A stretch of DNA of 63,984 nt, the filler included, from Ionaspis alba (lineage: Eukaryota), in NCBI GenBank assembly GCA_964255285.1. It is 7 parts of 7 records of this genome, joined end to end, with 100 filler letters (N's around TTAATTAATTAA, not from the genome) between each part and the next. Parts side by side here need not be neighbours in the genome. Positions count along the whole stretch, not along the records: positions 28,572 to 37,937 come from CAXUUL010000677.1; 6 more parts are not named here. One strand, given 5' to 3'. The position numbers and the translations under genes are program-made. The notes under the pieces were generated by a model. That model was not told the DNA's origin and made no database searches. It saw only the letters and a program-made list of their open reading frames with translations. Positions 9,452-57,015 of this stretch are shown piece by piece (position 1 is the first letter of the stretch; every line of letters starts with the position of its first letter).

Positions 9452-9551
9452 NNNNNNNNNNNNNNNNNNNNNNNNNNNNNNNNNNNNNNNNNNNNTTAAT
9501 TAATTAANNNNNNNNNNNNNNNNNNNNNNNNNNNNNNNNNNNNNNNNNNNN
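9452..9551. other. Artificial contig spacer (N44-TTAATTAATTAA-N44); also at 18978-19077, 28472-28571, 37938-38037, 47348-47447, 56758-56857
   Basis: Identical 100-nt linker with stops in all six frames. Intervening segments decrease in length. Confidence 0.97.
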
Positions 9552-18244: not shown

Positions 18245-19564
18245 GAAGCTCGGTGAGCTATGAACTTGTAATTTTGGTCCTGTAGCATTGCAAGAGCTGT
18301 ACATTTTTTTGCTTGAAGCTACACGATAGAGCGGAAACGGTTGTTGATGAAAAGACTTTATTGAACATCTGTAAGAGAAGTTACATTGTTACAGAACTGC
18401 TATGAGGGAAAAACTTGGCCGTGACGTTGTTTGCTCGCTCGCACTGGTATTATCTTGTGAATTATACACCTAAGATCGCTTTCTCTGTTTCCTTCTCAAC
18501 TGCCTTGCAAGTTCTTAATCTACCGCTGAGTCCCTATAATCGTTCGGTACCTGACGCATCTCTTGCACTTCGAGATCAATGGATAGGATGACCCGATCTG
18601 CTTTGAGGGCTTCCAATAACATTCCAGTCCCTCAGCGCTCGAAAAGAACTCGCGGACAAAAGAAGTGCGGTCTTCTGGTATTTGGACAAGTGCTCTAATG
18701 GCAGTAGTCACCTCAGTCATGACCCACCGGAGCGAAAAGATACCAGTTACCCAAAATGTCTGGATAATATCATCTAAAGAGCCAACCGCTGCGCACAACT
18801 GAAGTGGGGAAGCACTATCTGTTCAGTACACATATATGAAATTTGTTTAAGCTGATCTGAAACAGTAAGCTCTTTGCCATGCGGTGGAGTCTGTTCATCG
18901 TGTGGTATCTGTCCGAATTACGATAGCGGTCAAGCATAAACCACGCTCACCTCAAACCTCTCGAAACGTAAACTCTCNNNNNNNNNNNNNNNNNNNNNNN
19001 NNNNNNNNNNNNNNNNNNNNNTTAATTAATTAANNNNNNNNNNNNNNNNNNNNNNNNNNNNNNNNNNNNNNNNNNNNGAGGGGAGGGGAGGGGAGCGATG
19101 AGGAGTGGGGAGTTTAAAGGTGTGGAGTGGGGAGTTGAGATTTGTTGATGAGGGGTGGGATGGTGGTTATTGGATTTGTCGAAGTCTGCGGGCTTTTGTC
19201 CTGTCCGGGGTGATTCACCATTCTGATTCATACTTTTGTTCTTTGGTTTCCCTGTCATATCCATTCCAAATGGTTTATCACATCCCTCGTTGCCGCGTCT
19301 TGAGTCGATTTCCTACTGCGTGTGATGCACCACTTCTTTTCATACTTCTGTGCCTGATTGTCTCTGTCATCACCCCACTGTACGATTCACCGTATTCCTT
19401 GATACCCTCATGCTTCACTAGGTCTGTCACACCTTCACAGTATCCTTCCCCTCGAGCCTGCCGTCTATATAACTCGAATACTCTGCTGGTAGTACACTTC
19501 AAAATCCTGCCATCAACCACATCTCTCGCAAAGCTTCTGTGAAGCCCATCGCCCTCCCTTAATC

Positions 19565-22404: not shown

Positions 22405-22999
22405 AAATCGAAGCGCTACTGACCATGGGATTCGACGGTGTAGAAGTTGAGGTTTGCTTACTTCGCGCAAGAACGCCTCTCTTACAACAGAGAGTGCCAT
22501 TCCGAAGCCATATTGAAGCGATATTGCGCCGTTCCAGCATCCAGTAATATAGGTAGGAATGTCTAGGCGGAGCATTGCTATGTATCGCTCTGCTAGACCT
22601 ATACTGCTTCATCCCACGAGTGGCTGTGTATAGGCTGGCACGTGATAAGGTTTTGGACAGCAGGCATTGAATACTCGTACAGAAGAATTGGAGGGCAACT
22701 GACGCCAGCTCAACGCAGCCAATTCAGGCTTCTACCTGCTGCGCGCCTTGCACCGTTTTATAGATCCTTTTTTGCTTTTTCGATACTCTCTCGGTGCTCC
22801 CCACTGCTTCCACGCTGTTTTTCCTTGCTCCCTTACTGCTCCCTCTAAAGCGGCCCTGCTCCTTTTCCCGACCCGAAACGGCAATCGTNNNNNNNNNNNN
22901 NNNNNNNNNNNNNNNNNNNNNNNNNNNNNNNNNNNNNNNNNNNNNNNNNNNNNNNNNNNNNNNNNNNNNNNNNNNNNNNNNNNNNNNNTCGCCTCTAGC

Positions 23000-25584: not shown

Positions 25585-26648
25585 ATGGATACAGCCATTG
25601 ATCTATCTGATGCCTCCAAGGCGTTAGATCTTGCAAACATCCGCTTCCAATTGATGTATNNNNNNNNNNNNNNNNNNNNNNNNNNNNNNNNNNNNNNNNN
25701 NNNNNNNNNNNNNNNNNNNNNNNNNNNNNNNNNNNNNNNNNNNNNNNNNNNNNNNNNNNATCTGATGCCTCCAAGGCGTTAGATCTTGCAAACATCCGCT
25801 TCCAATTGATGTATGACAGCGAGAGAAGTTCCTGCTTGGGAGAAAAGTCTAGTACTGACTATCACCAAGCCGTCTCGAAGACACAATCACATTCCATCTC
25901 ATTGAGCGAGTGCAATTTCCTTTGAACAAAACAATATACGAATCCGGCGGCGTCAAAATCCCAAATAGCAACCTCAGCCTCTTCGACTGGATGCTCCGAG
26001 AACAAGAGCGCATCCACTCGCGAATCCGTCGTTACGAATCGCCAGACGAGTATCCATTTTTTCCAGATGTGTTAGAGAAACCCATGTTGCAGCCGCTCAA
26101 GTATCCGCAAATCCTCCACCCAAACACGGTCAACTTGAACGACGAGATCAAGCGAAGGTATATTCAGACCGTTCTTCCACGTGCTTGCCGAGACTTCGGC
26201 AGGGAGGACCGAGGCGAGACGCAGGAGAACTATGGATCTTCGGCAACGTGCGATACGGCTTGTCTGCAGGCGATCTCAAGAAGAATCCACTTCGGGAAGT
26301 TTGTGGCTGAGGCAAAGTTCCAAGCAGAAACTGAGAGATTCGTGGAGTTGATCCAGAATGGGGATAGAGAGGGAATTGATGCTGCAATCACAAATGCTGC
26401 TGTTGAGGCGAAGGTGCTGGAAAGACTGAGACTCAAGGCAAAGACGTATGGGACAGATCCGAGTATAAGTCTTGAGGGGCAAGAGAAAATCAACGTCGAT
26501 GCTGTTGTGGCTATGTATAAGGTAAGCCATTGTTCGAACAAAGTTGCACAAATACTCACAGGTACAGGAAATGGTCATACCTTTGACAAAAGTCGTGGAA
26601 GTAGAGTACCTCATGCAGAGACTAGAGGATACCCAATGGAAACTATGA
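25585..26648 (+). CDS. aro7: Chorismate mutase (exon 1 partly duplicated around an assembly gap)
   Basis: [61 protein letters not shown] and [17 protein letters not shown]. Confidence 0.96.
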
Positions 26649-26706
26649 GCACCACGAGCCTTTTCTAGCATGTGGCCAGTGGTGTTCGCACCGATCTTTG
26701 AGCTTA

Positions 26707-27668
26707 TCATGACGGCTGAAGGAAACTTTCAATATCCTTTACCGCCTCCTCAAACTTCCTGGCCTCAATCAGAATCGCATGTCCCCGCGGCCTAATTCCT
26801 GCCTCCTGGAAAGCCCTCTTCGCATCCGCCTGTCCCTCTCCCTCCTCCTTCACATAAGTGTACCCACCCCACGCCAGTGCATGCCGCTGCAGTACCTCAT
26901 CCTCGGGATGGAAGTAGAAAACCTCTTGTCCGTCCTCCGTAACCCCACCCTTTTTCTTCTTCTTTTGTGGCCGAGTCTCGTCGTCTAGCTTGGACAAGAT
27001 CTCGAGGTAGGTCTTCGAGAGGATGAGATAGTGCGTAAATTGGTATGGCTCTTTCTCTTCGAGCGCCCAGGCAATTTCTTCGAGTAGCATGCGATACATT
27101 GGTGGGACAACCTCGGAAGGAATGTTGATGAGACGTTCTGTGAGTACCAAGCCGACTTGAGCATTGCTGGTAGAGCCTAGAAGCTCTGCAAGTGGTGCCA
27201 ATGGAGTACTTGATATTGCGCGCTGCGAGACATATTCGATCAAGGATTTGATCACTGGTTTTCCCTGCCACCCTTATTAGCCCCGACTCTCTCTTGCTTT
27301 TTAGATATCTCCCACCCTATGTTCGTATAGATTCAACACTGTCAAGAACGCATACGGATCCGTCTCGTTCCCATCCACTTTGACCGTAGACCCAAGAAGA
27401 GGTTGCGCCAGGATCAAGTCTGCCAGAGCGCTCAGATCGAATAACTGTGCATCCACATCGAGCAGTTGACGGAGGAGGGTCTTCAATCCGTGGAAGTCGA
27501 CTTCTGGCTGAGGATCAAACCATTCAAACTCGACGTCTAGCATGTCCGTATCCTGAAATTGAGTTAGTCGAGCGAAAACATGGGGGACACGGAGATGGGT
27601 ACCAAGTCGCTGGAGCTTTCATCTTCGAACTGCTTCTTTGAGCGTTCTGGCTCTTTTCTTTTGGCCAT
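26707..27668 (-). CDS. bcp1: Bcp1/BCCIP family protein, 3 exons
   Basis: [48 protein letters not shown] and YFHPEDEV. Confidence 0.93.
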
Positions 27669-27844
27669 CGTAAAGAAGTCTTTGGTAGAGAGCAAAGTCA
27701 ATTGCCCCAAATCGTTGCTAAGGTCGTATTGGATTTACGAGAATCTATGCGAGCCGTCAACTTTTGTGAAAATCTCTTGGCGGTACAATACATAACCCTA
27801 ATCTTGTTGAAGGAAGTAACTCCGGTATTAGCGTGGTTTCCCCA

Positions 27845-28471
27845 TTAAGCTTAGTTTAATAGTATTTAGTTAGGGGTTCTCGCTTCTTTCCTCTTTTATA
27901 GTTATAATATATTTTTGTAACAGATTATAAGCCCGGATATTTGTTGTTATTACAACAACAACTACAATTGTATTAAATAATAGATTTTAACTAATTATTA
28001 CGGTTATTATTTTTTATTATTCTACTTATTTTTTCATTTTTTAAGATTTTTATTTTTTTTGGATTTTTTTTAAATTACCTACTATAATATTTTTTAGTTT
28101 TAAACTAGATTAGTTTGTATTATTTAAATTATTTTCGAAAAAAAATAATTATATCGAATAAAAATCAGCTTGGACAATTGTTTATAAATATATTAATTTT
28201 TAATTTATTGTTAATGGAAAAATTATACGTCTATTAATCGACGATAATAATTAAGAAATTAAAAATACGTAAATTATAATTATAATATTTAATTCAGTTT
28301 ATATTGATTTTATTATAATAATTATTATTTGCGATACCTCGCACAAAATATAAAAATATTTTAAAAAAAAATTCGACAAAAATACGGAAAATATAATTAT
28401 CTATTTTTTTCGTGCGTTAATTAATTTATATTATTATAATAACGAAAATCTTCGAACTCACCTGAACAATT
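27845..28471. mobile_element. Extremely AT-rich relic, probably a RIP-degraded repeat, at a contig end
   Basis: Abrupt shift to very high AT with excess TpA and no ORF. Element family not recognisable. Confidence 0.7.
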
Positions 28472-28677
28472 NNNNNNNNNNNNNNNNNNNNNNNNNNNNN
28501 NNNNNNNNNNNNNNNTTAATTAATTAANNNNNNNNNNNNNNNNNNNNNNNNNNNNNNNNNNNNNNNNNNNNAGGGGTGTGTGAGATTTTGTATGGGGATG
28601 GTGAGTGCTGTGGGAGGATAGTAGAAGTAAGGAGATGGCGAGAATTCACTGACGTTGACAGGTTGAGTCTACGGATC

Positions 28678-28770
28678 CCGATAATCAGATGATATATAAC
28701 ATGTATATAGATTATATATACCCCGAATTTAAGGTGAGGTGGCCGCTTTAAAGGGAGAACCAAGGGAGCA
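28678..28770. repeat. Degenerate repeat copy A (related to 32761-32870)
   Basis: Shared blocks ccgataat..atatat..atgtata..attatata..c.ccgaattta.g and ggccg.ttta..gg.ga.accaa.ggag. Confidence 0.65.
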
Positions 28771-30730
28771 CGAGAGCTTGCTATGGCAGAATTCAGGCTA
28801 GAGAGTCAAAACTGGCCGGGAGCAGAAATTGGCTGCGTAAGCCCGGCTATAGTTACTCCAAACCATTGAATAATTGACCGAGCTCAAGGCTGCTGCCCAC
28901 CTTGCCTAATTTGAAGCTTTCTCGGTACCTTGCACGAGTTAATGGCTTATTAGGGAGATTCTGCAACGAATGTTAAATCGAATTCCTTATCGCATTAAAG
29001 AGGCTTGGCATGTTTCCGGACAGATCGGGTAATTCGATTAACTTTGTACTATACAGGGACCTTAATCGTCGAATTATACAAAGAAACTCTAAATAAGGGA
29101 GTCGTTGGCAAAGCTTGGGTACCTAGATAAACATCGCAAACAGGTCGACCCACACGCTTTTCTGACTTAAAATAGATTTGATGCACTTTTCTTCTGCTAA
29201 AACTAGTTGTTTGCCAGCTTTATGTGATTATATTTCTGTTGAAATGATGTCGTTCTTACGGTTTTTGCTCACTACGGCTTCTGTCAGTCTGGCTTTGCAG
29301 ATCGTTCCCGGCCATTTATGCTGCCCGGCTCTGGCCGGCGATGGTACGTCTGAATCTATAGCGCATCAGGCGGTGCATCCCCGAAGCTAGTTTCATAGCT
29401 CCGTCGGACTTGAACAGTATAGTTTTTATAACGACCTCACCGATAGCCACCGCATCTCGAATGAGACACCAAGCACCTCTGTGAACCATTCGACCGCCGA
29501 ACCCCGTAACGAGGCCCCCAACCAACCACCCCAGCTCTCCCGCCGCTCCATTGAAGAAGCTTATATGGCGATCGGAGCGCACCTGCTACAGCGACGCAGG
29601 GGCGCGGGCGAGGTTTCCGAGAAGCCAGTCAATCCACTAGTCCTATCTCACAGAAACGGTTTTGATGTTACAAACGCGATTATTCGTACGCAACAATCTT
29701 CGAGTCAGCCCATAGGCTTAACAGTTGGTTGATAGATTTGATTTCAAGGTTTTATGAATTTTGAACTCCTTGGGTTGAATCGATAACTTGCAACAGCCCA
29801 AGCTTAGAATAGACTCGATTTAAGGGTTGTCGCTTCAAACGCTCAACTATTGTGTTTTGTTGCGGCAGGCCCACTCAAGTCGGAAGGATTATATTGATGT
29901 TAAGACTGTTATACGGTGGTTCGCTTTAATAGTATGGAATGCTCGCTACAGCGTGAACGGTTAAAAGAAGGGAGGAGAGCTCGACACGTGTAAAGAGATA
30001 TCTGTGTCGAATATGATGTCCAGCGATGTTATCTTATCGGCATTGCCGGTGGAGGAACGTGCGGTGTCGATACAGAAAATTCTGAAACGCCAGTATGAAA
30101 ATCGAGATACAAGAGGACAGACTGGTATAAGCTCAACTCATTTTTTCAAAACTTTCACTGATTATATTAGCTGAGTACATAAAGTTTGTTCCCTGAAAGA
30201 ACCCACTGGGTTTACCCAACCCGTGGTGCAGCGTACGTGGAGGCCCGAAGCGACCCTGGAATGGTATAGAAGGAGAGGGTGTGGGTGACTCGCGACATAT
30301 CTGTAGGTGGGCCGCTTCTTTGTGAACCGACGGAATTTGTATATGAAGGGACACGCAGCTGAGAAGATATGGTGATAGTGGGTAATCTGCCCCTGTCTCA
30401 TTGTACGCATTGGCCAAATGAATCATTATAGGACATCTACCGGCATATTCTTAGCCGTTCACCTGGACTCCGAGGGAGCAGACATAATAGTGAAGCATAT
30501 TAACGAACAGGATTTCAGGTAGGCCTTGCATTAAGCGCGATGTTTCGAAGTAGGCGTATTGCGCGTACTATATATACTGGCAACGTCACCCTACACAGTA
30601 TATGTGCCGCCGTTTCAGGCATTTCTAATCTCCTGGACCAGTCGAACATAGGTCTTTGCCCAACCCAAACCATTTCCAGAGCCACCGTGGCCGGCAGTGA
30701 CCCTAGGCCAGGCTCATCCAAAGCCCGGCC

Positions 30731-31067
30731 TCACGTAGGGATGCAAGTGAGACCGCCATCGCCGGGCGCGCACTCTAAAGCCTGGCGTTAGCGGACCACC
30801 TCCCTCGCATTTCTCAAACCCGCGACTTACTGCCTTTGACCGTCGACCCATCGGTGCTGACGCCCGCTTTGTACGCGCAGCTGGAGCCAGCCTTATGGCT
30901 GCAGTTGTTGGGGCAGCGGCACGCCGCGTCTGCGATCTCCCCGTCAGTGCTGGATCTCCAACGGCGGTTCGACACCTACCGGGGTTGGTCGCGGTAAGAA
31001 CGGCCCCGAGAGCCTGGCTGGCGCAGAGGGCCGCCACGAGGGTGAAGAGGACACCACGGAATAGCAT
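30731..31067 (-). CDS. NFAP2-like secreted cysteine-rich antifungal peptide, 76 aa, 3 exons (31067-30980, 30929-30831, 30774-30731)
   Basis: Spliced product MLFRGVLFTLVAALCASQALGAVLTATNPDAACRCPNNCSHKAGSSCAYKAGVSTDGSTVKGKCAPGDGGLTCIPT. It has a signal peptide and 6 mature Cys spaced like NFAP2 (CxCPNNC.HK.GS.C.Y...GKC...G.L.CI.T). Introns are canonical with CTGAC/CTAAC branch sites. Confidence 0.9.
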
Positions 31068-32671
31068 TGTGAAGAGTTTGTTTTTGGTAATCAAAGTTTG
31101 TGTCTGATTGGAAGTACTGTCAGAGGAATCTGATGAAAAAAGATGGGGAAAGAAGAACGAGCGTCGGTTGAGCTTTTGTATTCATTGTCTGCCAAGTAAG
31201 TCTGTTCATTCCGTTCTTGTTGCGTCCTCGGAGCTTACGCCTCATGTAATAAGTCCCTTACTGCTGATCGATGCCCCAAGCAGGTCGATTTGGAGCAGCA
31301 ATCGACCTCCATAACGATGACATTATGCGAGGATTTGAGCCGGCTCGGAGCTTCCGAGTCACGCTAACAAGCTTTGGACGGCGAAAGGTGAGGTCAGATA
31401 TAGATCGTGATCTCATATGAGGCCAAAACCCAGCAAGACAAAGGCGGTGAGAAGGTACAGGCAATGCAAACCACCCCACAAGAAATGTCTCACGGTTATA
31501 TTGCAAGGGTTATATGGTTTACGTGACCGCAGAGATGGGTACAAAACGGAAAAGCCGTGGCAGAGAATATGTTGGCTGCCCGATCAAACATCCAAAAGAA
31601 TGGCAGCCGAACAAAGCTCAAGATCACACACGGAGTATGATATTTGTGTGATGAACATGATCGAAAAATAAAATGTTTTGTAATATATAAATTGGAAGCG
31701 TTGCATCTTACGCTGACTGCGAACTAAACCGCGCGATGATCTAGGTACAACATATCAATTGATGGTCTTAATGATCAGACCGAATTGTCTGTTGAAATAC
31801 TTGGTTCTCAAAAATTCTTTTCTGAAAATAGGGGGTCCGTAATGGAAGCAGATCCCTTTCTGAGACCTGCCGTTTGCACTTTCAGGAATCAAATCCGGCG
31901 TCAGTGCAAAACTATCACAGCCGTTTAGTAAGACAATGCCGTAATAACGAGCATGGTATATGCCAGGTTGCGCCAATCGCTCCGTTCGGTATCTATTATT
32001 TGTATTGAGTCAGGTTGTCAGACTGCCCCTTCTTTCATCAGCAGCGTGCAGATGCGCCTACTGCGTGCGTCATCTATCATTCATCTATAGGCTATCTCTC
32101 TCCCGGCGACGTTCTTGCACTGCAGAAACTAGTGGAATCGCAAGATGAATGCGGCGTTCCCCATCCCATCATTTGTCAGGATCTGCAACACCACTCTGGG
32201 CTAGATCGAGTGCGGCAGATGCTTTTCACAATTAATCGCGTTACAGCACCTGCTTGAAGTCCTAAAGATTCGAATCTCGGTCAAAGCAGAACAAGCTTTG
32301 TATGAAAGGAACGGACCGAATGATATATGGCGTTGCCTCGGCGCACTGTGCCGGGGTGAGCAAGAGTCTTCAGGAGCCCGGGGATACTGTGAGTATCATA
32401 GACTGAGGTAGTTAAGTCAAGGCTGACGTAAACGGTTTTGAGAGACCCTAGCAAATTTGATGTTCTTTTACGCGGCTGCTTTGACCTGTCAGCATTAAGC
32501 GCCCAATCAACTTTCCGTCCATGATGATTTGTTAAGGTTAGGGTGCAGGCGGTGACTGTATCTAAAGCAGGGGTATTTAGAATATGCGTGAGACATCTAT
32601 GATGACCGTGAGAGCTGATCCCTCCAGGGCTCCCGTAATACTCTCTATAGACTCCTCCACGCTCTCTCGAT

Positions 32672-32870
32672 GCTCCCTTACTAATCCTGCATAAAGTGGC
32701 CGTACTCTCTTTCTTAGATAAAGTAAATGATGGCTAACCTGCAATCTGAGGTGCGCATAACCGATAATATATATATGTATATTATATACACTCCGAATTT
32801 AGGATTGGAGATTGCTGTTCCAGGACGGGAAAGAGAGCAGGGCCGTTTTAGAAGGAGCACCAAAGGGAGT
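32672..32870. repeat. Imperfect inverted repeat around a (TA)-rich core; MITE-like relic, copy B
   Basis: Left arm 32672-32713 reverse-complements to gaaagagagtacggccactttatgcaggattagtaagggagc. Right arm 32829-32870 reads gaaagagagcagggccgttttagaaggagcaccaaagggagt. Confidence 0.6.
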
Positions 32871-33481
32871 CAGGGAACGCAGCAAAGGAGACCAGGTTGA
32901 AGATATTCAGAGTTCTCCAAGCACATCCTGAACCTGTAAACGATACCTACCAACCCAAGTGCTGGCCCAGCAGCTTCTGCCATCACGCATGGAGTAAAAC
33001 TAGACCTTTCCTGATGTTTGGTCACGATATGTTGGAGGAGCAACTCCTACAGTAATTCCCTGACCCTGTTAACAATCGAGGCCAAGGCGCACGTGCAAAA
33101 TTCACAGCACCGACCCTCCACTCACCAAACATAAAACGTTATAATTGAAATGAACCTTTATGTTTGTGATTAACTCATACTATAGTTACAGTTTATTTTT
33201 ATATTATACAAGAGAATTCAAAAGGTCGATTCATATTTTTTAATATTTTTATTGCCAGCGAAATTGTGAGAATTGTCGGGGCGATTGGATTTGCGGTGCA
33301 GCAAATATTGCACGCGCGCCTCGGTTGTCCGTCCTGTATCCATTTACATACGTCGACCTACACTCCTGGACCTTACAATTGCAATACCCTTTTATTATAC
33401 CTACGTGCTTCCGTACAACGCTTAACCACAACACATTGCCAACGAACGAGTCCATGCCATCACAACCGCAATCTCGTCAGG

Positions 33482-35071
33482 ATGTTGGTACGTAAACTCC
33501 TTGAGTCCCGTGGTCAGCAATTCCTTCGACGACTATGGACGGCTCCAACAAACGCTGCCATGCCCGCAAGCCGCGCACCTACTATCCTCCCGTCTGATGT
33601 TCTAGTGGAGGAAGAAAAAATTCCTAAATACGACTCTAAGCACTTCTACCCAGTGAATCCAGGCGACCTCTTCCACAATCGTTATGAGATGTTGGTCAAG
33701 GTCGGATGGGGCACTTCTTCTACCGTATGGCTAGCTCGAGATACCCAACGGTATGTGCTAGCCTGATTAAAGCACTTGTCACGTTTACGTCTCACACCTT
33801 TGCAGGTGGTGGTGGCAGCCCAACCGTTACGTCGTTCTGAAAGTCGTTGCCGCCCGTTATATCGACCAAGATGCGGCAAAGCATGAGCTGAATATCGATC
33901 AACGCCTCAAAACAAACCCATCGCATAGCGGCTTCCTATTTGTAAGAACTACGCTCGACAGTTTTGAAATCACCGGGCCAGATGACAGGCACTTTTGTCT
34001 GATCTACGAGCCATTGAGAGAGCCTCTCTGGATATTTCAACGGCGTTGGGAGGACGGCAAATTGCCACCGAGTATTGTCAAGATATACTCGAGGCTTCTC
34101 TTACAAGGACTCAATTATCTTCATTCCGAGTGTCGCGTCATTCATACAGGTGGGTTTAAGGCTTCGTTCGACATCAACGTATGCTAAAGCTCATTCCATA
34201 GATCTTAAACCAGATAATATCATGATGAGATTCGAGAACCCATCTGTGATCGAAGATTTCGTCCAAAAACAAGCCGAAACCCCCATGCCTCGAAAAGTTA
34301 AAGATGGCCGATCAATCTATCTATCACACAATGATTTTGGGCGACTAAAGTCGTTACGTGTACTACCGATAATAGCAGACTTCGGTCTAGCAGAACTAGG
34401 AGATGGTCCCGAACCTCTGAGGCACCCCATACAGCCTCCGCTTTATCATGCCCCAGAGGTCATATTAGGCACTGGGTGGACATACAGCGCAGACATCTGG
34501 AACCTGGGCGTGTTGGTGCGCTTTAGCTTCTCTCGTCAGCTACGGATGAATTCTGCTGACTCCAGCGTGACACGCAGATTTGGAACCTATTGGAGAACAA
34601 AGATTTGTTCAGACATATCCGTTCCAGCCAAGGCGCTTACGATCCTCGAGCACATCTTGCGGAGATGATTGCGTTACTGGGTCCTCCACCGAAAACGCTC
34701 ATTGACCGAGAAATAAGGTGGAGCCAGGTCAAATGGAGCCATGCTGTTCCAAATGCAGAAGGCGAGCTTTGTCAGACCGCTCGCGAGTATTACGGAGGGC
34801 CTTTCTTCAACTCAGAAGGTATGATTGTTGAGCTCGTCAATGCTACCCGCCGCTACCTACAGAATGGCTGCATTACTGACCCTGAATCTCAGGCGAGTTC
34901 CTATACCAAGACCTCATTCCCAGCAATTTCAACCTGTCGCACTCAGCCCTTTCCCTCAAAGGAGAAGACAAGCAGCTCTTCCTTGATTTTATGAGTCATA
35001 TGCTTCGATGGTTGCCAGAAGAGAGAACGACCGCGAAGGAACTCCTTGAGCATCCGTGGCTGGTTTTATAA
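33482..35071 (+). CDS. SRPK-like (CMGC) protein kinase of the fungal expanded subfamily, multi-exon; start uncertain
   Basis: EEEKIPKYDSKHFYPVNPGDLFHNRYEMLVKVGWGTSSTVWLARD, H(T)DLKPDNIM, IADFG, IQPPLYHAPEVILG..ADIWNLG, HLAEMIALLGPPP; ends LLEHPWLVL-stop. Confidence 0.9.
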
Positions 35072-35691
35072 CTGGACGAATGACTACGTTTCGTTAAGGA
35101 AAAGAACCCTTACACTTGACAGCGCTTCGCCCCATCTAAGGCGGGAGGCCGGGCCGAATCGCTTGAGCCAGGATTCATGGGCCATCTTGCGGTGGAACTT
35201 CGATGAATTGAAGCTTAATACCACACCTCGTGAAGCTCCTCCTGCTTCGAGACCCTTGTCGTGACAACAGAGAACAACAGACAGCAACAAATGGTTCGAA
35301 ACAGGCAACAAGAACGCAGGACGGGCATGTGAGTCGATTGGTTGGGCAGCCGCCGACATAATTGTGATTCCAACAACCTCAAGTTCCTGTCGATCTTGGA
35401 ATGCACGCTGACTCATTGGATAGAAGCTGTCCGGGTCATACCACAAGCTCGGATCTAACAGAGAGCCGTTGTTTAACCGCCGAGTGCAAGAGTCCAAAGC
35501 CGAATTGGAACGGCGCTTAGTTATTGTCTCATATGTGGGAAGGTGTGGTTCCTTTCGTTAAATACATAAAGCCGTCTCTAACCCCGAATCGTAGCCACCC
35601 TTCCACACAATTAGTTCTTCTCCCATCGAGCCCCGTGAACAGAGAAGGATAAACCAGTTCCGAAAACGCCAATTTCCTTCTGCCGCAAGAC

Positions 35692-36242
35692 ATGTACAGA
35701 GCTTTCTCAACTGCCGCGAGGGTGGCAAAAAAAATCTCATGGACATTCAATGGTACCACCCAGGATATGAATGCGGCATTGGCGGGAATCGAACAAGCTC
35801 TTGATGTGATACCCCAACTCGCTCAGAAGGTGGAGAAAGGCATCATCAAGTGAGTCCTCGTCGATGTTTTATATTGCATCCAATAGGTTCTAATTGGACT
35901 TCAATATGAAGCGGAGATCCGCATCCCACCAAGCGTGCCGACGGCACCGTGGATCCAATTCATATTTCAGGTGTGCTAGGCAAGGGGAACCTGAAGGGGT
36001 CTAAGAGGGCCACTTCCTTCCACCTCTACCTAGAAACTGGAGATTTGGAATTCTCCAACGCGAAATACCAACCAGTCCGTATCCCTTCGTCTAATAACCA
36101 AGCGGGACAGTCGTCTTCTGCTCAACCAGCAGCTCAGATACCAGCTCATCAGCAGGCATCAGACTGGGTGTGGGACGAAAACGCCCAAAGGTACAGGTAT
36201 TGGAATGGTTTCGAGTGGGTCTGGCAGCAGCAGCAGAGTTGA
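35692..36242 (+). CDS. Hypothetical 162-aa protein (exons 35692-35849, 35912-36242) with presequence-like N-terminus and Trp-rich tail
   Basis: A GTGAGT...CTAAT...AAG intron gives the open frame MYRAFSTAARVAKK...GDPHPT..DPIHISG..TSFHLY...DWVWDENAQRYRYWNGFEWVW. Confidence 0.7.
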
Positions 36243-38162
36243 GCAAGTCATAACTGGCCGTCATTCCCATTTTTCGTTCCGGGGGAGGCTCGCTGGTCAA
36301 CGTTTTCGGAAATCACAGGGGACTATGCCGCCTTCCAGTTGCCTATTATAGTGCTCTAATTTGCGCATCTCGAGTCTTGGTGCCTGCGTGAATTGCGTCG
36401 TTCCGTTATGCCGAACTGGAATCAGCATTTTTCAGCCCAGCTCCTTTATCCTCCAGCTTTTTGCAGGCCCCCATGCATAAAGTTGCGCCGCTCGGTCAGC
36501 CCTGCAGAGTAGCCAGCGCTATCCATTCCCGTCCCCTTTCTCCATCTAGCTTAACCGGCGGAGGTCGCCAATCCAATTCCCTTGCCACGCGCTTAACCCG
36601 TGGAGACCTTGTACGCATGAATCTTCGCTGACCGGTCATTCTCCTTCGCCAAGTAATGTCCGTATGAAATTGCGCCTACCGGTCAATCCATAGAGAGCCC
36701 AATGCTATCCAATCGAAATCCCTCGTTATACATCTGCTTCTGAACTCAATTGAAGGCACGGAGCTTGGTTTAGGAACAGTGTTTTCATGAGACAGCTTGA
36801 CAACAAAGAGATATTGCAATCAAGTCAGCGTGCACTTCTAATCCTAGGCGGCATCGCTGTTGCCTAACATTAAATCACTTCTCTGGCGGCTTGTGTTTTC
36901 AGTGAGCGGCTTCCAGTAGCCAATAATTCACTCTTTACATTCCCTGTCAAGCTTTCGGCAGATCCTCATGCCGGTACCGACTTGGCACAAGCCAATGTTA
37001 ACGTGACAGGCAATTAAGCTATCCTAGCCAAGTCGCGTTTCGCGTGGGGTTTATGTGGCTCTGGCAAATGATTGGTTCTCGATGACTGATAATCAGCCGC
37101 CCACCCAGTCTTGCAACCTCCACAAACCCCGCTTCTTATTACACTCCCAAGGGAACCATCGCGTCTCTTGCCCGAACTGTCGAAAAGATATCAAAACCCT
37201 TTCTCCGCCAATCAGTATGGAAGCTGGCGTTACAAAGCCAGACACAAGCAGAACGCGAAGAGGCCATAACAAACTTGACAAGCAGGTCTGGCCAGATCAG
37301 CCAAATCGTTAGAGTTCCGTTCATGTATCTAAACCTCAATATGACTGACTATACATAGGCAAAAAGCGCCGTATCGCCAAAGACGAGGATGCAGTTGATC
37401 ACACGCGCAAGAAACCGAGAATCCAGGAAAGTTGTGGCAATTCCGGTGTGCTGATCAGGTAATAAGTTCAGAGTCGCTTCCACTGCAAACGCGGCATCCG
37501 TTTGACTCCATTGGTTGAAGTTTGTCATAGATCTATTGGACGCATGTGGCATTGTCCAGTTTCTGTTGCGCTTGCATTCAATGAGAAAGCATGGGCTATT
37601 CGGGGATGGAATCAATTCCCATTTTCCAGCGGTTGCTTTCCCAAACTCTTCACGGCGAAACCTTCAGTCGCCGAAAGTCACCGAGCTACACGTCGTTCGA
37701 TGCCATGCAGCTACCTCGCCCCGTATTGCCATCAACCAGTTCTACGATGTTCGCTCCAAGTCTTGGAGGACGCTTTTTTAACTAGCATGAACCAAGTGGT
37801 TGGGATACGGACTAACGTGGTGAGATATGACCGGTCAACACCTCGAGTTCCCGTAAGGCTGCAAAGCGTGGAGAACTTGCGGGACATCCTAGCTTCCCAG
37901 GGTCAGTCAAGGATATGCAGTCAGCGGACGGCCAGTANNNNNNNNNNNNNNNNNNNNNNNNNNNNNNNNNNNNNNNNNNNNTTAATTAATTAANNNNNNN
38001 NNNNNNNNNNNNNNNNNNNNNNNNNNNNNNNNNNNNNACCTTAATTGTGTCGAAAGTTATTTCCAGCTCTCGAATTGTGTCCTCTCACCACACCTACTTT
38101 CGACCGAACCTCAAATAATTCTCCTCTTTCCCAAGTCAAGAATATCGAATAGATCGCATACA

Positions 38163-41756: not shown

Positions 41757-43100
41757 CTTGGAGGGCTGTTATCACCAGTGAAGGTATTTGGTAGAGGTAC
41801 CAATATCAACAGCCACAGTGTGATGCGAATATGTACACAAGAGAATTGAGGAACTATCCGTCACCTCTTTGTGGAGAAAGAAGAGACCGTGGTTGATCAC
41901 GGTTGATCTGGAGGGGAGCATTCGTGGTTTTAGATTCCTTTCGCACTCGCTCTCACCGTCCTGTTACTGCTGCAGGAGAAGGCTAGACCCGTCCCAAGCC
42001 AGACGTACATGCATGGAGGAGCTTCCTGGATTGATAACCAGAGGTGGGTATCACCGGTGCACTAACTATCCATGGAAGCATCTCATGAGCTTCCATCGCT
42101 ACTGATTGGCTCTTTGTAACGGAGGAGATCTGCAACCACGAGCGGGGGTGAGCAGTATAGAGTGCGGGAGCCGTTATCAGTTCGTGCTTGGCTCTGTCGC
42201 TTGTGCCAGGCGCTGGCAGACCTTGGCCCGAGGTTCTCTCCTTCCTTGTCTGATGGGATGGGACATCGGCTGATAGGCACAGGACACTTGTGGCCACGCA
42301 AGGGTGTATCCTTCGGTGATCCCATGTCTAAGCGAGTCTGCATGAGGAGGGTGGCAGCACGGTGGTGTACACGGTAAATCACTGCAGCGTTGATCCGTAG
42401 GTTTGGGTTGAACCACTAGACGGAGGGCTGCAGAAAGACCGGAAATGATAGAGGGAGGGGTGATATTGCTATCAAAGATCTTTCAAGCTAGTCTCGATGA
42501 GGCTGCTATTCCGGTTTTGATCTTGGTACGTTTGTCACGTTTGTCTTCGAGTGGATGATGCACAATTCCTGTGCCTCGATGCCCTAATGATCTTCTTCGG
42601 ATTAACGTTCAGGTTATGCATATTATTGATGCCTTGGTATTTTGGGTCCTCACGACTGTCACTGCTTAAAAAGCTGCCAAGCGGGTCAGAAATCAACATC
42701 ATTACACATTTCTGTAGTATGTTGCGATAAGGAGATTCTGCTTACTGCTTTGTCCAATGCGACATGATCAATTTGTCACTCCTTGCCTGATTTCGATGCT
42801 TTACGTTATCCTTGTAGAGATTTGCCTTGAACGAAGCTTTGAGAAAGTCTGGAAAACATCAAAATAATGTGGATTTCCTAGAGCTATCCAACTCACGACT
42901 CTCTCCTCTCAATAGGCAACATTTTGATTTCTTACGACCAGCACTATGGATCCACATGGGTCTCTGGAATCCAGTATCCCAGATTGGGAAGTTGANNNNN
43001 NNNNNNNNNNNNNNNNNNNNNNNNNNNNNNNNNNNNNNNNNNNNNNNNNNNNNNNNNNNNNNNNNNNNNNNNNNNNNNNNNNNNNNNNNNNNNNNGCACT

Positions 43101-44918
43101 ATGGATCCACATGGGTCTCTGGAATCCAGTATCCCAGATTGGGAAGTTGAGCTTGGCCTCCCTCAACTCGGGGATCCTTTCATTCAACAATACCTCAACT
43201 CCCGTGATGCCTTGATTGACCAAGAGAAAGCGACACGTGCTGATGCATCCTTTCGATCTTCCCTCGCACCACTTGCGCAGGAGGCGTGTGCAATCGTCTC
43301 ACGGATACGTACAGACGAGCGGCAGACAGTATGGGTCAAGGATAGCGAACTGTCTGGTCATGTATTTCCGGGCATGCCATTCAGCCTGGCCCGAGGACGC
43401 ATGCAGAAAAGTAAGTTGTGGCAGATTGTGAAGAAGATGCCTAAGGGTGCACTTTTACATGCTCATTTCGATGCTATGATCGATGTGGATTGGCTCGTTG
43501 ACCAAGCATTGGAGACGGAAGGGATGGGGTTTGTGGCTGGGAAAGGTCTCTCTACCGCTCAAGGCCGAGAGACAGCGCCTGTTGCGTTTCAGTACGTTGG
43601 CAAATTCAAAGGGAACAAGGCGGACGACAGTTCTATATGGACTTCAGAGCCTTCTACGAAAATTATTATAGCTACCCAGAAAGCAGCAGACTCTTTCCCA
43701 GGCGGCCGCTCTGCCTTCAGAACCTGGCTCATAAGCAGAATGACCATCACTGATTCGGAAAACCTCGATCATCACCAGGGGCTAGATGCCATCTGGACCA
43801 AATTTGCATCAGCGTTCCCAATAATATGCTCTATCCTTTTCTACGAGCCCATTTTCCGTGCTTCCCTACCTCGCTTGTTCCAAGAGCTCCTCGAAGATGG
43901 TGTGCGGTGGGTAGATCTTCGTTGTGCCTTCGTCTCTGATTACAGGAGAGCGGGAAGCGCTGAACCGGAGAAAAATTACTCGGCTTTATTTCAAGCTTTT
44001 CACGAGGAACTACAGAAGTTCAAGGCCTCCGAGGTTGGATCAAGATTCTGGGGAGCCCGTTGGATATGGACCACTCTGCGCGTTATGCCCAGAAAGCTTG
44101 TTGTCGAAAGCATGCAACAGTGCATCGCTATCAAGAAACAATTCCCAGAGCTCATCTGCGGCTTCGATTTTGTGGGACAGGAAGATTCGGGAAGACCACT
44201 GGCAGATCTGACGCCAGAAATTTTCTGGTTCAGAAAGCGCTGCGTCGAAGAAGGAGTTGAGATCCCATTCTTCTTCCATGCCGGGGAATGTCTTGGAGAT
44301 GGCGATGCGACGGATGAAAATCTCTTCGACGCCATACTGCTGGGTACGAGGCGTATCGGTCACGGGTTTTCGCTCTACAAACACCCACTGCTCGTTGAAA
44401 TGGTCAAACAGAAATCTATCCTTATCGAATCCTGCCCCATCTCAAACGAAGTGCTCCGCCTCACAGGATCAATCATGTCACATCCGCTTCCCGCACTGCT
44501 CGCGAGGGGTGTCAAAGTAGCGCTGTGTAATGATGATCCGGCAATACTCGGCCACGGAAAGAATGGCCTCACGCACGACTTCTGGCAAGCGCTCCAGGGA
44601 TGGGAGAATCTGGGACTTGAAGGCTTGGGTAGCTTGGCCGAGAACAGTGTTCGGTGGGCTGCCTTTGGACCCGATCAGAAAACGAAGGAGTGGTTAAAAG
44701 ATGTCAAAGATGGTGTCTATGGGCAGGGTGTGAGGGGAGAGCGCATGAGGGAATGGGTCGCGGAGTGGAACCGGTTCTGTGAGTGGGTAGTAATGGAATT
44801 TGCGGCCGAGTATGGTGGTGACGATGAGGAAGAGTATGATGATGCTGGAGAGGTAGACCATGATGGTGAGGACGACGAAGGTCTCGACAATCATGGACCA
44901 AATGCATTGGCGCTGTAA
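43101..44918 (+). CDS. Adenosine deaminase, ADA2/CECR1 (ADGF)-like, intronless, acidic tail
   Basis: MPKGALLHAH, GFDFVGQED, FFFHAGE, DAILLGTRRIGHG, ESCPISNEVL and NDDP. Confidence 0.93.
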   Translation: MDPHGSLESSIPDWEVELGLPQLGDPFIQQYLNSRDALIDQEKATRADASFRSSLAPLAQEACAIVSRIRTDERQTVWVKDSELSGHVFPGMPFSLARGRMQKSKLWQIVKKMPKGALLHAHFDAMIDVDWLVDQALETEGMGFVAGKGLSTAQGRETAPVAFQYVGKFKGNKADDSSIWTSEPSTKIIIATQKAADSFPGGRSAFRTWLISRMTITDSENLDHHQGLDAIWTKFASAFPIICSILFYEPIFRASLPRLFQELLEDGVRWVDLRCAFVSDYRRAGSAEPEKNYSALFQAFHEELQKFKASEVGSRFWGARWIWTTLRVMPRKLVVESMQQCIAIKKQFPELICGFDFVGQEDSGRPLADLTPEIFWFRKRCVEEGVEIPFFFHAGECLGDGDATDENLFDAILLGTRRIGHGFSLYKHPLLVEMVKQKSILIESCPISNEVLRLTGSIMSHPLPALLARGVKVALCNDDPAILGHGKNGLTHDFWQALQGWENLGLEGLGSLAENSVRWAAFGPDQKTKEWLKDVKDGVYGQGVRGERMREWVAEWNRFCEWVVMEFAAEYGGDDEEEYDDAGEVDHDGEDDEGLDNHGPNALAL

Positions 44919-47195: not shown

Positions 47196-48215
47196 TTGCG
47201 GGGTGGAAATTGGGCTTCTTCTCCTTCCTAAAGTACGTTTCCCAGGATTAGCAGACTTCTTGCACCGAAATTCGAGCATATAGGCTGAGGGGACAGACAT
47301 TCGATGTCAAAACCTCGTAGCAAGACCAGCCGCAGCTAGCCGCGATANNNNNNNNNNNNNNNNNNNNNNNNNNNNNNNNNNNNNNNNNNNNTTAATTAAT
47401 TAANNNNNNNNNNNNNNNNNNNNNNNNNNNNNNNNNNNNNNNNNNNNACGAACGCTGGCCCTCTCGGCCTCATCTCCGAGATGGTTACTTGGCGCGGTCA
47501 TACCAGAAGGAACACCAGGGTCTGGGCTGTTCTAAGGATTTCATAGCATCTAGTTCATTAGCAAGGTTTTCGTTGCGGCCATACGCCCCTCATGCATGGT
47601 CAGTCAGTCAGCGGGTCTCGCAGGACTGCAGCCTGTCACTCTCGCCTTCCTAGATCTGTGTCTGTAAGGCGAGACGTATTTGCTTTTGCACCAGAACTCG
47701 TGGCCCGGGCCGATGCAAGCTTACATGCTTGCAGGCAGCTTCTTTCCAATCTTCCTCCATACATGCCGACTTAGCCATACTGCTGATATTAGAGCGTTGG
47801 CTTAAACCTTCTGAGCAAACCATGGCTTCAGACCCTATTCACGAGTCTTTAATTCAATCTTGAAGAGTATGTACATGAGCTATAGGAGCAAAATCTGCCT
47901 CAATCCGCCCATTAGAGAGCTTTTCAAAGCTATCGTTCCTTGTCTTGAATTTGGCCGCTTGGCTGGTTTCCCTACTGTTGAGCCCCGAGGTCTTTGAGTT
48001 TATTCTCTACTGAGGTCTGCCAGGCCACTACTGTCTTACCGAGGTTAGTACATGGCTAACCGCTTTCCCGTAATCTAAACCTGACAGATGCTTTCTGCTA
48101 TTTCGAGCCAGCTCTGTTCTAATCTTTGTGTTCCAACAGGTCTAATGCTGCTCGCACTATCGCGACCGCAACCTGCAGAATCACACTAGACAGAGTTGAA
48201 AAAAAGCTAAAGAAT

Positions 48216-56495: not shown

Positions 56496-57015
56496 GATTG
56501 ATGATAGTCATTGATGGCACACGAGCGGCGTTGGGCAAGCATTTGGTTGGAAGTTCTCTAGGTATTCAAGTAGCTTTGTACATATATCATCACTGTTCAG
56601 TAGTTGAAATCTCCCCCACTCCAAGCACAGCTCTATGCCACGATGATGATCGACTTGATCTGACTCCAATATGTTACAAGAAGCCTCTAATCTGTTCACT
56701 TATCCTCACCTCCTTGCCACCTCCGCTCCCTCCTCCGCATTAACATCCATTCCAATCNNNNNNNNNNNNNNNNNNNNNNNNNNNNNNNNNNNNNNNNNNN
56801 NTTAATTAATTAANNNNNNNNNNNNNNNNNNNNNNNNNNNNNNNNNNNNNNNNNNNNCCGAGGAAGAGACACTCGCAGAGAGGAGCGTCCAGACCTAGGT
56901 CGAGGCAGAGATAGTGGTCGAGAAAGAGACAACCGGGGGCTGTACAGTGATAGTCTCTATTCGCGTCCACGTGCTCGCGGATTCCATTGACTCGATCTCA
57001 AGCCTTACGAGCATC

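Follow-up and report, generated by a model that had tools for sequence, protein, structure and literature searches.

The stretch of DNA analysed here (63,984 nucleotides, hereafter called the window) was taken from the Ionaspis alba assembly GCA_964255285.1. Between positions 31067 and 30731 its minus strand carries what is very probably an intact nuclear gene of three exons, encoding a 76-residue precursor of the NFAP2 family, a small secreted protein stabilised by disulfide bonds. Among the cysteine-rich antifungal proteins of fungi this family makes up the 'NFAP2 clade'. A preliminary description of the locus had proposed a three-exon gene for a secreted NFAP2-like peptide, and that proposal agrees with the sequence, with the spacing of the cysteines and the gamma-core, with the exon-intron organisation and with the fold predicted for the closest homologue. 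The locus is a further member of a known family, and the only possibly new element is the lineage of its host.

All parts of the gene are read on the minus strand, with exons of 88, 99 and 44 nt. The ATG of exon 1 (30980..31067) lies at 31067 and has a favourable context, with A at -3. This exon encodes the signal peptide of about 21-22 residues and the beginning of the mature N-terminus, and its final base is the first of a split Asp codon. Next comes intron 1 (30930..30979; 50 nt, phase 1, GTAGGT...CTGAC...CAG). Exon 2 (30831..30929) supplies the central part of the mature peptide, in which Cys1-4 and the CPNNC motif lie. Intron 2 (30775..30830; 56 nt, phase 1, GTAAGT...GCTAAC...TAG) lies directly before the Cys5 codon, the codon split at this second junction being that of a Lys. 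Exon 3 (30731..30774) contributes 13 residues and the stop codon (TGA, 30733..30731), or the last 14 residues if the split Lys is counted; it carries Cys5 and Cys6, and the gamma-core G-x-C-x8-C is completed across the junction. When the exons were joined by their coordinates, they gave 231 nt corresponding to 76 codons and a stop, with no internal stop codon. Of the seven cysteines of the joined precursor, six belong to the mature part and the other to the signal peptide. In the unspliced frame starting at the same ATG (30714..31067, 117 amino acids) intron 1 is read through and the family sequence is lost after residue 29, just as the preliminary description had said of the open reading frame (ORF); the junctions it had placed at 30979/30930 and 30830/30775 are exact, and the joined exons give the 76-residue preprotein that it had predicted. 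No second copy of the gene was found elsewhere in the window.

Membership in the NFAP2 family can be recognised from exon 2 alone. When these 32 amino acids were compared with the Protein Data Bank (PDB), a single chain was found at E <= 10, 8rp9_A ('Antifungal protein'), which matched over 30 residues without gaps (E 1.5e-6); 8RP9 is the structure of NFAP2 (PMC11818080, PMC11351017). When homologues were sought with the exon-2 frame, read through without alteration, as the query, all nine scored candidates were homologous (E 8e-11 to 3e-5). These were small proteins annotated as 'hypothetical' in Hypoxylon, Whalleya, Xylaria, Nemania, Seiridium, Neoarthrinium and one Xylariales isolate. A profile of the nine Xylariales homologues matched 8rp9 with E 2e-20 over residues 1-51 of the 52 in the chain, and in the profile alignment exon 3 was colinear with NFAP2 residues 38-52. 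The relationship to NFAP2 suggested earlier is thus borne out both by exon 2 and by the profile. When 8,000 candidates were scored with this profile, 216 proteins matched at E <= 0.01; 120 of the 216 matches were listed, and the family alignment had 121 rows. The closest protein was a 76-residue protein of Hypoxylon texense (P0004), 69% identical over 75 residues and colinear from the initial Met to the C-terminus, which supplementary file 2 of PMC13525654 already counts among the members of the NFAP2 family. More generally, the joined protein is colinear, residue for residue, with annotated homologues of 75-77 amino acids. Since all nine scored candidates were homologous and the joined protein is colinear with annotated proteins, the gene model stands far above chance. 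Pfam gave no family for any of the four NFAP2-family proteins tried, and according to a 2026 survey of the family InterPro likewise has no model for it (PMC13525654).

The details of the mature part point in the same direction. Counted in a 52-residue domain that begins eight residues before Cys1, the cysteines of the window peptide are at positions 9, 11, 15, 23, 40 and 49, and the published cysteines of NFAP2 occupy the same six positions (PMC5025423). Across the second junction, the final Gly encoded by exon 2, the Lys whose codon is split and the Cys-x8-Cys of exon 3 build a gamma-core that conforms to the dextromeric definition G-x-C-x(3-9)-C (PMC5845869, PMC11423270). By a simple test the N-terminus has the properties of a signal peptide (one basic residue, a hydrophobic core and a site with small residues, A-L-G/A); the mean Kyte-Doolittle hydropathy of residues 5-16 is 2.45, and the N-terminus is colinear with the signal peptides of the homologues. 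All six cysteines are kept in 90 of the 121 family rows, the row of the window among them, and the exons of the window retain every invariant and near-invariant column (A,C,C,P,N,N,C,G,C,G,C,C) of an 88-row alignment.

In place of the window peptide, its H. texense homologue (69% identical) was modelled with AlphaFold2 and the 88-row alignment. The model had a mean predicted local distance difference test score (pLDDT) of 69.8; in blocks of ten residues the score was about 72-87 from residue 31 onwards, which covers most of the mature part. When it was compared with the PDB, NFAP2 (8rp9) was the sole match at E <= 0.001 (E 1e-4; 233 matches at E <= 10), and the superposition gave a template modelling (TM) score of 0.80, normalised by the target, and a root mean square deviation of 2.1 A over 51 columns. 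As far as this model of a relative can be transferred, the window peptide is predicted to have the NFAP2 fold, in which the N-terminal half with the Cys11-Cys15 loop is flexible and the C-terminal half forms a beta-sheet. Neither a lack of NFAP2-family matches nor a predicted fold unlike NFAP2, both named in the preliminary description as outcomes that would refute it, was thus observed.

A scan of metagenome contigs with an exon-2-led alignment found 16 homologous loci, whose identity in the matched segment was 44-76%. Introns were compared by reading the flanks of 11 of these 16 loci by eye. Intron 2 was at the identical codon and in the identical phase in all 11, splitting the codon before Cys5, and intron 1 was likewise identical in codon and phase in nine, three codons before Cys1. 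As these positions are common to the metagenome relatives, the two-intron structure is a trait of the family and no coincidence of this locus. In the remaining two loci (L009 and L011) intron 1 is absent and intron 2 is kept, indicating loss or gain of an intron within the NFAP2 family.

In its overall layout the window peptide resembles NFAP2: it has the same 52-residue mature domain with identical cysteine spacing, the same CPNNC loop between Cys2 and Cys3, a C-terminal dextromeric gamma-core and an N-terminal secretion signal. It differs in the precursor, which in NFAP2 has 86 residues with a pro-piece of 13 and in the window 76 residues with none, in the residue between Cys1 and Cys2 (Asn in NFAP2, Arg in the window), in the class of the host and, above all, in charge. 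For a mature window peptide of 52-55 residues we computed a mass of 5.05-5.33 kDa, an isoelectric point (pI) of 8.3 and a charge of +1.4 to +1.8 at pH 7 (+2 if counted as K+R-D-E), whereas NFAP2 has a net charge of +5.2 and a pI of 9.0 (PMC5025423). The window peptide thus does not match the strongly cationic character of NFAP2, as had been noted in the preliminary description; it is nevertheless typical of the family, since among 102 scored family rows, which ranged from -4 to +6, a K+R-D-E of +2 was the commonest value (19 rows). A strong cationic charge is a property of NFAP2 itself and not of the NFAP2 family. In simulations, NFAP2 touches lipids with the Cys11-Cys15 'fingertip' together with Lys16, 18 and 19, and with Lys24, Lys32, Lys34 and Trp42 (PMC11351017). 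Five of these six lysines are changed in the window peptide, only Lys18 being kept, and Trp42 is replaced as well; the CPNNC fingertip is retained. The anti-yeast activity of NFAP2 has been mapped to residues 13-23 and tied to net charge, not to sequence (PMC5845869). The equivalent segment of the window peptide has one Lys versus three, and a charge of about +1 versus +3.1.

By analogy with NFAP2, the signal peptide of about 21-22 residues would be removed near the A-L-G/A site, and the short precursor would have no pro-piece to be cleaved off. The released peptide of 52-55 residues (about 5.0-5.3 kDa) would then fold with three disulfides in the abbcac pattern, which has been proven for NFAP2 (PMC10273333), and would act outside the cell on competing fungi. 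Because the lysines with which NFAP2 binds membranes are mostly replaced, weaker electrostatic membrane binding is to be expected. Judged from this comparison, the chances are slightly in favour of the peptide being antifungal at all, but it is doubtful that it would be a strong anti-yeast agent. Compared with the fast yeast lysis by NFAP2, a weaker or differently targeted activity may be expected; the peptide is unlikely to be a fast yeast killer and may still be antagonistic to other fungi. NFAP2 itself is, according to the 2026 survey, the only family member that has been assayed for antifungal activity (PMC13525654).

Two further observations concern the cysteines of the family. Cys2 and Cys3 are jointly missing, with the other four kept, in 19 of the 121 rows, all of them from Basidiomycota (19 of the 25 basidiomycete proteins, from Marasmius, Cerrena, Moniliophthora and others). 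These NFAP2-like proteins form a four-cysteine subgroup, and the paired loss is indirectly in keeping with a Cys11-Cys15 (Cys2-Cys3) bond as in the abbcac pattern. In 12 of the 121 annotated proteins (e.g. P0123) one or both of the last two cysteines are lacking, most likely because gene callers missed or mis-spliced the third exon of 14 codons. Short three-exon genes of this kind are easily mis-called, and the family is probably under-annotated.

The distribution of the family has been described in the 2026 survey (PMC13525654), which counts 219 NFAP2-like proteins, 133 from Sordariomycetes, 68 from Agaricomycetes, seven from Eurotiomycetes, six from Dothideomycetes, three from Leotiomycetes and two from Candelariomycetes. 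In that survey Hypoxylon is the second richest genus, genomes with several copies are common, and Candelaria pacifica is the sole source among lichen fungi. No member from Lecanoromycetes was found in its Table 3 or supplement, where the names Lecanoromycetes, Xylographa, Cladonia and Umbilicaria have 0 occurrences, and Lecanoromycetes were also absent among the 120 matches listed from our family profile search. The patchy distribution mentioned in the preliminary description is therefore correct for the family and already in print, and horizontal transfer is called 'possible but so far unproven' in the same survey (PMC13525654); mobility of the copy in the window found no such backing. A literature search for NFAP2 and lichens returned nothing relevant beyond one unrelated review, and one for horizontal transfer between Lecanoromycetes and Xylariales returned nothing on topic by title or abstract.

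The nearest relatives of the window peptide are the protein of H. texense (P0004) and its orthologues in H. rubiginosum (P0005) and Hypoxylon sp. FL1284 (P0022). They share with it the length, a signal peptide directly before the mature domain, the C-R-C start of the cysteine motif and the type of C-terminal tail (GG-LTCIP). They differ in that the window peptide is 64-69% identical to them and has a terminal branch five to seven times longer, in their charge (-2 to 0 versus +2) and in their origin from Xylariales, whereas the window peptide is found in a lecanoromycete assembly. Arg between Cys1 and Cys2 is restricted to the window and these three Hypoxylon rows (four of four), all other rows of both alignments having Asn, and the precursor of 76 residues with no pro-piece is common to the same four sequences. 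The NFAP2-like protein of Candelaria pacifica (P0088, with a second copy) likewise belongs to a lichen-forming ascomycete and has six cysteines; it differs from the window peptide in coming from Candelariomycetes, in its long precursor of 88 amino acids and in the sequence of exon 2, which is only 50% identical.

In a quick tree of all 121 rows the window joined the three Hypoxylon rows with a support of 91 in the Shimodaira-Hasegawa-like approximate likelihood ratio test (SH-aLRT). A more careful tree was built from 54 rows chosen by hand, with 67 left out (support given as ultrafast bootstrap / SH-aLRT). In this tree the window again grouped with H. texense, H. rubiginosum and Hypoxylon sp. 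FL1284 (99/91), and the group was joined in turn by H. crocopeplum (98/91), by Whalleya and one further row (99/88), and by Xylariales sp., Neoarthrinium and Seiridium (96/89). The constraint groups for approximately unbiased (AU) tests were named after the tree had been seen. A clade of the window and Eurotiales was rejected (p-AU 0.0019), and a clade of the window and Candelaria was marginally rejected (p-AU 0.0425). The comparison of gene tree and species tree proposed in the preliminary description thus shows a conflict, with the peptide placed among Hypoxylon sequences.

The question of whose gene this is depends on the contig that carries it. The window consists of seven separate contigs, and the gene lies on the fourth piece (28572..37937; 9,366 bp), between the linkers 28472..28571 and 37938..38037. 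Since the window was joined from separate contigs, genes on different pieces are unlinked. The sixth piece carries an ORF for Lon protease that is plainly of lecanoromycete type: its best named matches are from Pleopsidium flavum (83%), Trapelia coarctata (82%) and six Xylographa species (80-82%), compared with 75-76% for Eurotiales. The only other recognisable gene on the peptide's own contig is an intron-split SRPK-like (CMGC) protein kinase on the plus strand (33482..34994, ends approximate). A scan of 1.84 billion representatives gave 2,118 matches to this kinase at E <= 0.001, and of 20 representatives that were looked up, 10 carried names (Mollisia, Sparassis, Paecilomyces, cf. Caloplaca, Phlebopus, Fusarium, Polytolypa, Trichophyton, Xylographa and Chlorociboria); no Xylariales were among these 10. 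The kinase is another patchily distributed gene, and in a protein atlas it was placed only to phylum level. The single positive hint that the contig belongs to the assembly is a dispersed element of about 75 nt, present at 32810..32883 and, with 78% identity, on the third piece (22814..22886, beside a 100-N gap).

The base composition of the gene is conspicuous. The G+C content at third codon positions (GC3) of the peptide's coding sequence is 0.79, versus 0.42-0.61 in 17 other ORFs of the window including the kinase, and the GC-rich island extends no further than about 30,600-31,070. A high GC3 was considered as a sign of foreign origin and rejected: in all 16 homologue loci, which are from other fungi, exon 2 had a GC3 of 0.63-0.87, mostly above that of its neighbours.

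The position of the peptide would mean either gene transfer or a contig from a co-sampled fungus. On these data we lean towards the reading that the gene was acquired by the lichen fungus from a fungus of the Xylariales type, to which we give slightly less than an even chance. The fuller version, in which a lecanoromycete took up a Hypoxylon-type gene from Xylariales dwelling in the thallus, kept it intact while it diverged fast, and secretes a weakly cationic variant that manages the fungi of the thallus, is put forward tentatively and at clearly under even chances. Several observations weigh against transfer into the lichen fungus or against parts of this picture. Nesting within Xylariales was not enforced by the AU tests, in which neither the nine-row Xylariales group without the window (p-AU 0.083) nor the four Hypoxylon rows held together without it (p-AU 0.35) was rejected. 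The terminal branch of the window is 0.60, compared with 0.08-0.12 in its Hypoxylon neighbours, which could reflect relaxed constraint. As to the host, the kinase has no close named relative (best identity 56%), and its named relatives span Leotiomycetes, Eurotiomycetes, Lecanoromycetes, Sordariomycetes and Basidiomycota. By tetranucleotide composition the gene's contig has a mean correlation (r) of 0.63 to the other six pieces, which correlate among themselves with 0.72-0.76; it is no closer to unrelated fungal loci (r 0.57), and its outlier status may be due to the contig being mostly non-coding. Finally, the fold was modelled for a homologue in place of the window's own protein, and expression and splicing of the gene are predicted from its sequence.

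If the gene is real but the contig comes from a co-sampled fungus, such as one of the Xylariales type living in the thallus, no transfer has to be assumed and the locus would be an ordinary Xylariales copy. This would agree with the position of the peptide among Hypoxylon sequences, with the lack of linkage between the lecanoromycete Lon gene and the peptide's contig, with the compositional outlier status of this contig among the seven and with the size of the public run in which the contig is found, whose 164 million letters in total exceed one fungal genome. We nevertheless regard this explanation as less likely than transfer. The 75-nt element has its copy on a contig that also carries genes for WD40, CorA, chorismate mutase and BCCIP; Xylariales are missing from the 10 named kinase relatives, although this order is densely sampled (60 of the 120 listed family matches); the Hypoxylon copies share 82-83% identity with one another but only 64-69% with the peptide; and the GC3 of the kinase (0.42-0.53) is within or just below the range of the genes on the other contigs (0.47-0.61). 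Each of these points is weak when taken singly.

Vertical inheritance of an old paralogue lost in most lineages, with the Hypoxylon placement produced artificially by the long branch and the alignment of 52 residues, would be compatible with a family tree that is poorly resolved and conflicts with the species tree (Basidiomycota, Dothideomycetes and Hypocreales are scattered among Xylariales), with the failure to reject a position outside the Xylariales group mentioned above and with the frequency of multi-copy genomes reported for the family (PMC13525654). It is harder to reconcile with the Arg that only the window and the three Hypoxylon rows have between Cys1 and Cys2, with the short precursor and the GG-LTCIP tail that they share, with their support of 99/91, with the rejection of the species-tree grouping with Eurotiales and with the lack of Lecanoromycetes both in the survey material cited and among the matches listed, and we consider it quite improbable. 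The long terminal branch and the gene-poor contig might also be taken to mean that the locus is a decaying or silent relic and not a working gene. This we hold to be very unlikely, as no stop interrupts the frame in the three exons, the donor, branch and acceptor signals of both introns are canonical, all the invariant and near-invariant alignment columns are kept and the GC3 is as high as in homologues elsewhere. A small share of the probability, about as large as that of the old paralogue, is assigned to no named origin. Among all these explanations, acquisition by the lichen fungus from a Xylariales-type donor has the largest share, though less than half.

The preliminary description had also regarded the gene as accessory or mobile and its contig as gene-poor and repeat-bearing. 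The latter holds for the 9,366-bp fragment with its two recognisable genes, and not for the rest of the window, since housekeeping genes are found on the other pieces (Bem1-like, SAC3, Vps36, mitochondrial carrier, CorA, chorismate mutase, BCCIP, AMP deaminase, Lon, TANGO2 and others). The former was not supported: there was no match to Pfam families of the transposase, reverse transcriptase or integrase type at E <= 0.1 in 14 ORFs of the contig, and no pair of direct or inverted repeats bracketing the gene was found. Rfam gave no match on the contig, no tRNA genes were found in the window, and the flanks of the gene on the contig showed no similarity to the 16 metagenome loci (tblastx and blastn, E <= 1e-6).

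A public-run contig of 4,179 nt is identical to 29087..33265, introns included, so the sequence has been reproduced as genomic DNA. For positions 26000..35999 no RNA run was found, and the three public runs that were compared consisted of DNA contigs, in which no spliced junctions were seen. Several public-run contigs branch near 28.6-29.1 kb and 32.8-33.3 kb, which suggests that multi-copy segments flank the stretch with the gene, and contigs of the runs X1 and X2 end or branch at the 75-nt element. To the right of 33359 one contig of run X2 matches the kinase gene with about 88% identity, and to the left of this point it does not resemble the window. A diverged X2 contig over the peptide gene was not seen, only short identical pieces of low depth, which is no proof of its absence. 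Depths in the public-run contigs were unusable for assigning the contig to an organism.

The seven pieces of the window follow each other in falling order of size (9,451, 9,426, 9,394, 9,366, 9,310, 9,310 and at least 7,127 bp). They are separated by identical linkers of 100 nt at 9452-9551, 18978-19077, 28472-28571, 37938-38037, 47348-47447 and 56758-56857, each composed of 44 N, TTAATTAATTAA and 44 N, with stop codons in all six frames. Two gaps of 100 N within pieces are flanked by perfect 55-nt duplicates: 25605-25659 equals 25760-25814 around the gap 25660-25759, and 42941-42995 equals 43096-43150 around the gap 42996-43095. Since the duplicates look like un-merged k-mer overlaps of scaffolded contigs, the true length of these gaps is probably zero. 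The reading frame for AMP deaminase begins directly at the second of them.

Xylariales are frequent inhabitants of lichen thalli. If the contig belongs to the lichen fungus, the gene would be the first NFAP2-family member in Lecanoromycetes, and if the reading of transfer is true, it would offer a concrete and datable case with a named donor lineage and ecological contact, which could be used as a test of transfer between classes in the family. NFAP2 is under study as a lead against drug-resistant Candida. The copy in the window is a natural variant in which the scaffold and the CPNNC fingertip are kept and most of the membrane-binding lysines are gone, and it would thus allow charge and scaffold to be tested against each other as the driver of activity.

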